From a virus, in the IMG/VR virus record IMGVR_UViG_3300031951_000093, positions 15,994 to 79,993 of that record: DNA of 64,000 bases, one strand, 5' to 3'. Shown here piece after piece: positions 6,513-16,674 of this stretch. A program made the translations under genes and the position numbers. How positions within the stretch are numbered: position 1 is the first letter of the stretch; every line of letters begins with the position of its first letter. The notes beneath the pieces were generated by a model. The model did not search any database. It saw only the letters and a program-made list of their open reading frames with translations, and was not told the origin of the DNA.

Positions 6513-7238
6513 ATGGATCCACGTTTTCGCGTTGAAATCATCGCTCAAACGCCTAATCCCCAGCAGTGCATGTATGCCGCAATGCATCAGGATTATAGTG
6601 AAGGTTTTGTGTATGATGAGCGTGATAAATGGCCGGATGAAACTAAAGCTGGGGAGATCTGTGTTAAGCGATTATTGAATGGAGAACGTGGGCATTATGG
6701 AATACTGGAGCATCAGCAAATTATCCTTAATTGTGGGTACTTTCCCCATTCCGTAATGCAGCAAGCTCGGACACACAGGGTAGGCGTAAGTATGGATTGT
6801 CAGTCGATGCGTTATACTGGAGATCGTATCTGCAGAGCTGCTAGTGGCGAATTACATCTTGAAGATGTATTCTATTTGCGGCCATTGGGTCATTATACTG
6901 ACCGTCAAGGCAAAAAATATGAATACACACACAATCAGCGCGGAGAAGATCTTCATATCTGCAGCGTCGCTGCTGAACGCTATCGCAACCTAATCGAAGC
7001 CGGATACGCTGAAGAACACGCACGCGGAATCCTTCCCTTTGATTATAGGCAGCACTTTGTAGTTAGCTTTAATGCGCGATCATTTATGCACTTCCTTGAT
7101 TTGCGTGCAAAATTAGATGCTCAGCTAGAAATCAGACAGCTTTGTGATCTGATGTGGCCGCATTTCAAGGCTTGGGTGCCGCAAATTGCGGAATGGTATG
7201 AAAAGGCGCGATTGCATAAGGCACGGTTGGCGCCATAA
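6513..7238 (+). CDS. thyX: FAD-dependent thymidylate synthase (cyanobacterial type)
   Basis: GHYGILEH, QARTHRVGVSMDCQSMRY, DAQLEIR motifs. Confidence 0.95.
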   Translation: MDPRFRVEIIAQTPNPQQCMYAAMHQDYSEGFVYDERDKWPDETKAGEICVKRLLNGERGHYGILEHQQIILNCGYFPHSVMQQARTHRVGVSMDCQSMRYTGDRICRAASGELHLEDVFYLRPLGHYTDRQGKKYEYTHNQRGEDLHICSVAAERYRNLIEAGYAEEHARGILPFDYRQHFVVSFNARSFMHFLDLRAKLDAQLEIRQLCDLMWPHFKAWVPQIAEWYEKARLHKARLAP

Positions 7239-7243
7239 GGATT

Positions 7244-7293
7244 GTTTCAATTTGTAACCGCTTAGGTGATGGCGTGCAAGGCAGGCTTATGAT
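7244..7293 (+). promoter_or_regulatory. HLR1-like direct repeat + -10 promoter
   Basis: GTTTCAAT-TT-GTAACCGC, TATGAT at 34 nt, then hairpin. Confidence 0.7.
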
Positions 7294-7344
7294 TGCGTGT
7301 GAAGGGCGGCACAGATTTATGGCTGCCTTCTTTTGAAAAGCATC

Positions 7345-7509
7345 ATGAATTCACAAGCCTTAAAAAAAGGAATCATTTGCTGGGTTTCTACCGTAACCGG
7401 CAAGACTGGGCATGGTAAACCGCTATCTCTTGAGGATGCCAATCGCCTGGCTCGCCAAGCCAACGCAAAAAATCCCCTAATTATTTACACAGTCAAAGAG
7501 GTGCAATGA
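7345..7509 (+). CDS. small hypothetical protein (MNSQALKKGIICWVSTVTGKTGHG...)
   Basis: 54-aa ORF read manually; ATGA overlap with next gene. Confidence 0.65.
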   Translation: MNSQALKKGIICWVSTVTGKTGHGKPLSLEDANRLARQANAKNPLIIYTVKEVQ

Positions 7510-15206: not shown

Positions 15207-15461
15207 ATGAATTTTCAACCTCCAGCGCTTAATCCGCGCCCAATCCATCCTTCCTCTAGGCCTCAACCAGTGAAGCCTAGGCCATTAGATCGCCCCAAAG
15301 CGCAAATTGCCATGATCACAACAGAATATGCGCATCGGTTGCTTGCATTGTTTGCGCTATTGTTTGTCATCTCTTTGGGATCTTGCACCATTGCGCCTAT
15401 TCTTGGGGCATTAGAAGGTGCTAGGATTCACGCTCCGGCTAAAACCGCGATGGTGGCGTGA
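15207..15461 (+). CDS. Pro-rich membrane protein
   Basis: ORF with TM segment. Confidence 0.6.
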   Translation: MNFQPPALNPRPIHPSSRPQPVKPRPLDRPKAQIAMITTEYAHRLLALFALLFVISLGSCTIAPILGALEGARIHAPAKTAMVA

Positions 15462-15820
15462 TGGACTTCATTCAGTGCGCGGAATTACTAGAGTCTGAGG
15501 GCTTTGGTAATGCAGCTAAGTTTTTGCGCAATTTCAACAGTGATTCAACTATGTACAATGACACAGATCTGATGAGTTTACTGACTGACCCTAACATCAG
15601 TCAAGGTGCAAAAATTGGCGTCTTGGCTGACATGGTTGTGCCGAATGAGCCAGAGCCAAATTTGAACAAAGGTTATTCTGAAGTGCAGAATAACTTGCAG
15701 GAAATTGCGATGGTGACGTGGATGGCCAAGCAGGCAGTAAGGAAAGAGATGATTGAGATTGCGACTAGTTTGCAAGATGTATCGGTAAACAGTGTAAAAA
15801 TAGTTGATAAGGAGGCTTGA
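15458..15820 (+). CDS. hypothetical protein
   Basis: coupled ORF. Confidence 0.65.
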   Translation: MMDFIQCAELLESEGFGNAAKFLRNFNSDSTMYNDTDLMSLLTDPNISQGAKIGVLADMVVPNEPEPNLNKGYSEVQNNLQEIAMVTWMAKQAVRKEMIEIATSLQDVSVNSVKIVDKEA

Positions 15821-16674
15821 TTGTGATGAAACTATTGCGCGGCGGGTCTTGGGACCCCTTTCCCGAGGACTGCCGCTCGGCTTCCCGCTTCCACGGCGCC
15901 CCCGACCTTGCCGACGACTTCGTCGGGTTCCGCGTGGTCTGCCTCCCGTCACCTTCACCTTCAATCTTTCAACAGATGATTAAACTATTGCGCGGCGGCT
16001 CTTGGGTTAACCATCCCCGGTTCTGCCGCTCGGCCTACCGCGGCAGGGACCACTCGGATTACCGCTACAATGGCTGCGGTTTCCGCGTCACTCAGCCACC
16101 AGGTGCATCCTCGTTTGAAATTACAATGGTTCCCATTTTAGCAGGTGAATTCATGATGGGAACATCAAGCGACCTAAATGAATGGAGCGACGAAGAGCCA
16201 CAACATTTGGTGAATATAAATAGCTTTTCAATAAGCCAAACGCCTATTACTCAGACGCAATGGCGGGCAGTGGCATCATTGCCAAAAGTTGAAATAAATC
16301 TAAAGCTAGATCCATCTTATTTCAAGGGTGATAATCTGCCTGTTGAGAGTGTAAACTGGTATGAAGCAATGGAGTTTTGTCGGAGGTTAAGCGCCGCAAC
16401 GGGAGAAAAATATACACTACCAACAGAAGCGCAGTGGGAATACGCTTGCCGTGCTGGTACTACAACGCCATATAACATAGGGGACAAAATCACAAAAGAA
16501 CAAGCGAACTGTGGCAGCAGTAAAACCACACCAGTGCTCAAGTATCCTCCTAACACCTGGGGATTGCATGATATGCACGGCAATGTTTGGGAATGGTGCT
16601 TAGATGATTGGCACCCTAATTATGAAGGCGCTCCAAATGATGGTAGTGCTTGGCTTGATGGAGATGCAAAATGA
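15817..16674 (+). CDS. FGE-sulfatase/CLec-fold protein, circularly permuted, with two N-terminal DGR-VR-like repeats
   Basis: GEFMMG, LPVESVNW, LPTEAQWEYACRAG, GLHDMHGNVWEWC; RGGSW..CRSA.R..GFRV twice at N-terminus and absent at C-terminus. Confidence 0.88.
   Translation: MIVMKLLRGGSWDPFPEDCRSASRFHGAPDLADDFVGFRVVCLPSPSPSIFQQMIKLLRGGSWVNHPRFCRSAYRGRDHSDYRYNGCGFRVTQPPGASSFEITMVPILAGEFMMGTSSDLNEWSDEEPQHLVNINSFSISQTPITQTQWRAVASLPKVEINLKLDPSYFKGDNLPVESVNWYEAMEFCRRLSAATGEKYTLPTEAQWEYACRAGTTTPYNIGDKITKEQANCGSSKTTPVLKYPPNTWGLHDMHGNVWEWCLDDWHPNYEGAPNDGSAWLDGDAK
15829..16089 (+). repeat. two tandem ~110-bp VR-like repeats (period 153)
   Basis: AAACTATTGCGCGGCGG.TCTTGG...TGCCGCTCGGC...TTCCGCGT in both copies. 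Confidence 0.85.

Follow-up and report, generated by a model that had tools for sequence, protein, structure and literature searches.

The targets of DGRs are thought to carry their variable region (VR) at the 3' end and to lie with the RT, or at least in the same genome. The closest described proteins are the FGE-type C-type-lectin-fold (CLec) DGR proteins, such as Treponema denticola TvpA (PDB 2y3c) and the cyanobacterial targets (PMC7517822), and remote targets without an adjacent RT are known among them. VR matches in cyanobacteria were located by Vallota-Eastman et al. 2020 (PMC7517822) near 3' ends and nowhere else. Wu et al. 2018 (PMC5758913) reported three DGRs whose VR is N-terminal and a single target in which three FGE domains stand in tandem; for an N-terminal VR the IMH must, according to these authors, lie in the coding sequence, and remote targets were expected not to be phage-borne. 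Their targets sit in cassettes together with RT and TR, and a permuted single domain with spare modules was not described. A trans-acting DGR, in which avd-TR-brt on a plasmid rewrites a phage target, is cited in the same paper (PMC5758913, ref. 9). A full-text literature search for DGR in combination with circular permutation found nothing relevant.

The window analysed here is a stretch of 64,000 nt; it covers bases 15994-79993 of an IMG/VR virus record of 79,993 bp, which CheckV rated complete. One gene of the window shares with the FGE-type CLec DGR proteins the scaffold and the variable segment, the variation at template-adenine codon positions 1-2 and the presence of a single Cys, not a catalytic pair. 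It differs from them in that the segment is N-terminal, duplicated and permuted, and in that the phage is without any RT or TR. As in the targets with an N-terminal VR of Wu et al. 2018 (PMC5758913), the IMH-like remnants are located in coding sequence. PvdO (PDB 5hha) and formylglycine-generating enzyme (1y1e and others) matched the core best in both sequence and fold, but these proteins have the colinear order, enzymatic or periplasmic roles and no hypervariability. With the trans-acting DGR (via PMC5758913) the gene would have in common a target rewritable by the machinery of another replicon; that system is a laboratory construct with a full IMH, whereas here the coupling would be natural, from host to virus, and the IMH is truncated. 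The gene departs from both expectations named at the outset, the VR at the 3' end and the RT with, or in the same genome as, the target. We read it, with a probability of roughly 0.55, as a real, translated cyanophage gene for a natural circular permutant, a non-enzymatic and DGR-derived binding protein of the FGE-type C-type-lectin fold. Its features, with the kind of evidence in brackets, are the following.

15809..15815, plus strand: Shine-Dalgarno-like AAGGAGG, 10 nt 5' of ATG 15826 (sequence reading)
15826..16674, plus strand: whole gene, probable circularly permuted FGE-type CLec-fold protein, 282 amino acids from the ATG (ORF list, Pfam, PHROG)
15838..15936, plus strand: module 1 (distal), VR-type RGGSW..CRSA.R..GFRV segment, GC 0.73 (repeat, Pfam, relatives)
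15937..15990, plus strand: linker, with truncated IMH-like GTCTGCCTCCC, degenerate VR 3' flank and in-frame ATG 15976 (comparison with VR 3' flanks, TRF)
15991..16089, plus strand: module 2 (core-proximal), segment of the same type, GC 0.67 (pLDDT, relatives)
16090..16122, plus strand: connector TQPPGASSFEIT, linking what was the C-terminal strand (GFRV) to what was the N-terminal strand (MVPILAGEF) (sequence reading, pLDDT 82-94)
16123..16671, plus strand: FGE/CLec core, profile 4-211, GC 0.44, ending ..GSAWLDGDAK (Pfam, phmmer, Foldseek)

The protein matched Pfam PF03781 (FGE-sulfatase) in three stretches (5.9e-55, 187 bits against a cut-off of 23.3) and PHROG 18508 (1e-73). Besides the ATG at 15826, GTG 15823 and TTG 15817 are alternative starts; the homologues begin with MK(I/L)LRGGSW. 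The stop codon of the gene is 16672-16674, and the stop of the upstream ORF (15818-15820) overlaps the longest form, that starting at 15817. A signal peptide is absent and the neighbours are small early-type genes. The upstream ORF (15458-15820) is 80% identical to that of the related locus L006, which carries a 24-nt in-frame insertion near its end (window:15776); for the other neighbours the identity is 92-99%.

The RGGSW..CRSA.R..GFRV segment (profile 208-254) is the usual end of the FGE domain; in the window gene it was found at the N-terminus, twice and in frame. The core corresponds to profile positions 4-211 of PF03781 and the two N-terminal copies to positions 208-253 and 214-254 (E values 1.8e-6 and 3.8e-5). 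The colinear order, core and then RGGSW..GFR, was thus replaced by one in which profile 208-254 comes before 4-211, two times over. When the protein was aligned to the PDB with phmmer, residues 100-278 matched PvdO 41-241, while residues 4-38 matched PvdO 249-283 and TvpA 255-294, the latter being the variable region of the DGR protein TvpA. From these alignments it follows that the segment order is swapped relative to the solved structures. The circular permutation proposed in the preliminary description was borne out by Pfam, PDB and genome-search alignments, which agree on the swapped order. Two of its further observations were confirmed: the copies at 15838 and 15991 are of equal length, both 33 codons from RGGSW to GFRV, and the ORF stops with GSAWLDGDAK* precisely where colinear relatives carry on with LLRGGSW. 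The swapped order, a connector of 12 residues and 27 permuted homologues are what characterizes a natural circular permutant, in which module 2 would occupy the native position. Catalytic FGE has a cysteine pair in the C-terminal segment (Cys336/Cys341 in human FGE). Each of the two modules contains one Cys, in P..CRSA.

AlphaFold (AF2) with an alignment of 122 sequences resulted in a model with a pLDDT of 80 and a pTM of 0.79; with a shallow alignment of 22 sequences the pLDDT was 53 and the model uninformative. Foldseek gave a probability of 1.00 to PvdO, FGE and TvpA. The core was modelled with pLDDT above 85, and module 2 with the 12-residue connector reached 70-94 and was contiguous with the core. 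Module 2 (pLDDT 70-91) is predicted to form strands at 52-57 and 72-76 and a helix at 64-67, the secondary structure expected of the closing segment, that is an LLRGG strand, a short P..C helix and strands towards GFRV. Residues 1-45, comprising module 1 and the linker, remained below 50 and were not placed, perhaps only because few of the aligned sequences cover module 1. The question of which repeat completes the fold, raised in the preliminary description, was answered by the model in favour of the core-proximal module 2. From pLDDT and secondary structure only, we infer a structurally sound permutation in which the fold is closed by module 2. The two modules may complete one fold in alternation, as first proposed, but the model placed only the core-proximal one, and it is the distal one that is hypervariable in the population.

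The modules are direct repeats within tandem 153-nt units, the distance from start to start being 153 nt. Their GC content of 0.64-0.73 is high compared with the core (0.44) and the phage (0.46), in agreement with the initial remark that they are GC-rich relative to the rest of the gene. The differences between the two had been described as lying mainly at codon positions 1-2, which holds only roughly (14, 14 and 10 differences at positions 1, 2 and 3), but the changes at the third position are indeed mostly C/T. Following module 1, GTCTGCCTCCC equals the beginning of the host-type VR end GTCTGCCTCCCCCAGG..CCCTTAA.., after which the sequence diverges. In the linker, TRF detected TCACCT in 2.5 copies, a degenerate copy of the VR 3' flank that is translated as VCLPSPSPSIFQQ; the degenerate copy of this CCCTT-rich flank is now read as LPSPSPSIFQQ, and the in-frame ATG at 15976 heads unit 2. 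The start of a VR end followed by a degenerate 3' flank after module 1 indicates that each unit derives from a VR together with the flank of that VR. At the 3' end of module 2 just a degenerate, CCACCAGG-like remnant of the host-type VR end GCCTCCCCCAGGAC is kept, and module 1 retains 11 nt more of template-end homology than module 2.

In each module a stable hairpin was found, its stem formed by the RGG codons (GCGGCGG) and the C-R-S codons (CUGCCGC; window:15839-15876 and 15992-16029). For a 90-nt segment the folding energy was -35.5 kcal/mol (z = -2.3), and the stem is common to VRs and TRs throughout the class.

Template sequences for comparison came from a pattern scan of species genomes, which yielded about 120 loci, mostly from Cyanobium, Synechococcus and planctomycetes, and included 15 asparagine-rich TRs. 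The adenine positions of the 15 real Cyanobium-type TRs were used as a mask with 26 adenine and 61 never-adenine positions. In control pairs of true TR and VR there were 0 non-A mismatches and 11-19 A mismatches. Between module 1 and module 2 of the window, 21/26 adenine positions differed compared with 9/61 never-adenine positions (p=6e-9), and between module 2 of the window and that of L006 the numbers were 15/26 and 4/61 (p=6e-7). The variation thus falls on template-adenine positions, as it does in the VR of a DGR. In the latter comparison the never-adenine divergence of 6.6% equals the background, the core divergence being 6%, a pattern as would be expected for rewriting from one template after the phages split. 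Module 1 of the window differs from that of L006 at 20/26 adenine positions and also at 12 of the 61 others, which points to different templates. Two C-to-T changes (TCG, GAT) are present in module 2 of the window outside the adenine positions, and since these are common to the relatives, module 2 behaves as an old, drifting copy. As shown by this pattern in the sequences, both modules appear to have been written by adenine-specific DGR mutagenesis from Cyanobium-type templates. The DGR origin first suggested for the modules was upheld by the position of the differences, the host-like GC content and the remnants of the VR 3' flank.

The RVT_1 search found no RT in the whole 79,993-bp record, nor in ten records of related phages, of which four are 98-100% complete; as a positive control, the same search detected the RT beside the TR of the class in Cyanobium genomes. 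A TR was likewise found neither in this record nor in the ten related ones, and a third module copy or template repeat was seen nowhere in the 79,993 bp. The lack of RT and TR noted at first for the window therefore holds for the complete record. The template-type end GCCTCCCCCAGCACCCTTC (IMH*, ..CCCCCAGCACCCTTC) had 0 exact matches in 2.9 million IMG/VR contigs, and the VR-type end GCCTCCCCCAGGACTAATTC (..CCCCCAGGACTAATTC) had 13 in IMG/VR. Judging from these matches, the phages seem to hold only targets of the Cyanobium-type DGR class. In a Cyanobium genome the template-type end adjoins the RT at a distance of a few hundred bases. In Cyanobium sp. Cruz CV13-4-11 (G008:C9:50166-51164) the template end is located about 330 nt after the RT gene.

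It had also been proposed to look for a TR differing only at adenines, in the rest of the genome and in candidate hosts. Such a cognate TR was not found in the collections searched, which are samples and no proof of absence: the module-1-type pattern, with up to 3 mismatches allowed, did not occur in 401 Cyanobiaceae genomes, and searches of IMG/VR and JGI metagenomes for module-2-type TR patterns returned other VRs only. The 15 real Cyanobium-type TRs were rejected as cognate templates, as the best of them leaves 8 non-A mismatches for module 1 and 14 for module 2. We infer that the writing machinery is cellular, because the phage has neither RT nor template; the identity of the host was deduced from template class and GC alone.

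Turnover of the two modules was compared among the relatives, where variation in P0001, P0002, P0135 and P0136 was assessed at the protein level only (cluster members of ~90% identity). Five versions of module 1 were found among the window, P0001/2, P0135, P0136 and L006, and they fall in two template classes, ..P..A...V and ..P..R...C. Module 2 was identical in six relatives, one codon away from that of the window, and different only in L006. With five versions of module 1 against a near-fixed module 2, the distal spare copy is the one that turns over. Identity to L006 was 59% in module 1 and 87-94% in flanks and core (linker 87%, core 94%), and the connector was 100% identical. Mosaics were also seen. 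Over its first 51 nt, hypervariable codons included, module 2 of the window matches an L018 cassette but for one mismatch, and its 3' half is different; ADDFV is present in module 1 of both the window and P0135, with different 5' parts.

In our reading of the gene, the last ~40 residues of the normal domain, the part which DGRs hypermutate and which forms the ligand-binding face, have come to lie at the N-terminus as two units. According to the model, module 2 would pack back onto the core and close the fold, leaving module 1 as an unpaired spare. During infection, cDNA of a host DGR might home or recombine into the phage copy, or finished host VRs might be captured across the conserved module ends. 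Module 1, with its 11 nt longer template-end homology, would then be the copy that turns over, and gain, loss or crossover of units within the array may bring a new tip beside the core. The permuted protein probably binds a variable host factor inside the cell, which is speculative.

Among these possibilities, capture only is a real, if rather unlikely, explanation of the whole. It states that the phage gene never was a retrohoming target, that VRs of hosts or other phages recombine via the RGGSW and GFRV ends, and that unequal crossover resizes the array. The IMH, truncated after module 1 and degenerate after module 2, may make canonical retrohoming impossible and fits such a course, as do the two mosaics described above, the origin of the module 1 versions from two template classes and a module number that ranges from 2 to 5 among the relatives. 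However, no donor VR identical to a module of the window was present among about 220 modules, the best matching at 78-83 of 99 positions. The non-adenine divergence of module 2 between the window and L006, equal to background, is what rewriting predicts, but a donor VR from the same DGR would fit equally.

A more far-reaching proposal is tentative and, taken as a whole, unlikely. RT-less cyanophages would keep multi-tip lectin scaffolds, with N-terminal in-frame arrays as in the window or with C-terminal -1-frame arrays preceded by a G_GGA_AAG slippery site as in the relatives, and would leave the writing to the DGR of the host. Rewriting during infection would affect the distal module, whose template homology is longest; the tip to be displayed would be picked by crossover or, in the C-terminal type, by frameshifting, and the scaffolds would be aimed at variable host factors.

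A search of 5.8 billion proteins yielded many homologues with the permuted order. One N-terminal module was found in P0067, P0086, P0120 and L010/P0115, two in P0001, P0002, P0024, P0025, P0017, P0022 and L006, three in P0010, P0013, P0020 and L008, four in P0004-7 and L007, and five in P0003. The permuted homologues originate from independent JGI, ENA, NCBI and Logan assemblies. Synteny with the window was seen only in L006, where it extends to both sides (neighbours 77-99% identical), and L007/L008, L009 and L010 have no neighbours in common with the window; the permuted architecture is therefore present in at least three unrelated phage backgrounds. In the sample of fetched loci the permuted layout was seen only in viral contigs, and among 78 cellular cores, 77 carry a single in-frame module at the C-terminus. 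A tree built with FastTree from the core only, with weak branch supports, placed 26 of the 27 permuted proteins in one clade of 34 rows (support 87), and the permuted label was far more clustered on this tree than in shuffles. The single modules of L010/P0115 and P0086, which belong to the permuted clade, have a phage-like GC content of 0.47-0.51 and have kept R-G-G-S, R-S and G-F-R. Drift in GC with retention of the motif positions speaks for a long-term function of the N-terminal module.

These data also bear on the idea that the modules are leftovers from the VR of an FGE gene once present upstream and since lost, that chance fused them in frame, and that the core is non-functional or works without its last segment. 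We consider this quite improbable. A relic could be imagined in a phage without RT or TR, with an eroded IMH, a module 1 left unplaced by AF2 and many out-of-frame cassettes in the relatives, a family prone to messy duplication. Against it stand the intact frame and the strong Shine-Dalgarno sequence, the architecture kept across the whole core clade, in unrelated phages and after amelioration of module GC, a module 2 that is modelled confidently and contiguous with the core, and a linker and connector conserved with L006 (87% and 100%).

The GC-rich islands in a low-GC phage could have hinted at a chimeric join, but an assembly artefact or chimera, which the preliminary description had named as a way for the permutation to fail, was rejected on the identical junctions in JGI, ENA and Logan assemblies of different samples and the synteny with L006 on both sides, and ordinary positive selection without a DGR was rejected on the coincidence of the variable positions with template adenines of real DGRs, so that both are very improbable.

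Two loci show other arrangements of the modules. In L010 (L010:4700-7150; IMGVR_UViG_3300033571_015173, DTR, 87.8 kb) three tandem colinear FGE genes are directly followed by a permuted one. From the last C-terminal module (6292) to the N-terminal module that opens the next gene (6440) the distance is 148 nt; none of the modules is VR-like any more, and their GC content is phage-like. In L018 (L018:6890-7500) a VR-type module, the one whose 5' half equals that of module 2 of the window, heads a downstream ORF that does not encode an FGE core, which indicates that a VR-type module can be grafted onto other proteins.

If our reading of the gene is right, the variable tip of a CLec protein can be transplanted to the N-terminus and stacked there, which would be natural evidence that the scaffold tolerates circular permutation and would be useful for the engineering of DGR-type display proteins. 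In a set of cyanophages this DGR class would be represented by its target half only, template and RT having been found solely in cellular genomes. Hypermutation from host to virus, or systematic theft of host VRs, would thereby become directly testable with a Cyanobium host and its phage. A host DGR acting as a writing service would, if true, be a cross-genome diversity system.

Cassettes were additionally found at the C-terminus of viral relatives. Ten viral cores are followed by a -1-frame cassette with its own stop and then by a frame-0 cassette. This arrangement of VR cassettes is located at L011:5918-6280 and 7017-7390, at L012:6478-6830 and in L021, L028, L030, L023, L025, L026 and L054. 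The layout was seen only in viral contigs and in 0/78 cellular cores. The shift is always -1. Of the 12 loci whose first cassette is out of frame, 7 have CTG GGA AAG at the junction, with G_GGA_AAG in phase, a heptamer that we take to be that of the lambda G/GT frameshift. This junction is followed within 1-6 nt by a GC hairpin, which is intrinsic to every VR of the class. Comparing L028 with L030, the first cassette is constant and without a full IMH, and the second has a full IMH and differs. Programmed -1 frameshifting that gives one core two tips is possible; alternatively, the -1-frame cassettes may be fossil VRs from aberrant homing. The locus L009 (L009:6676-7700; IMGVR_UViG_3300020197_000087) contains five -1-frame cassettes, one frame-0 cassette and a further one at the start of the next ORF. 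Each junction in arrays of this type repeats CTGCCTGGGAAAG, and related arrays are present in P0074, P0093 and P0028. Near-identical relatives have 3+1, 4+1 or 5+1 copies, and several of the L009-type cassettes are 3-4 non-A mismatches away from the TR of L135.
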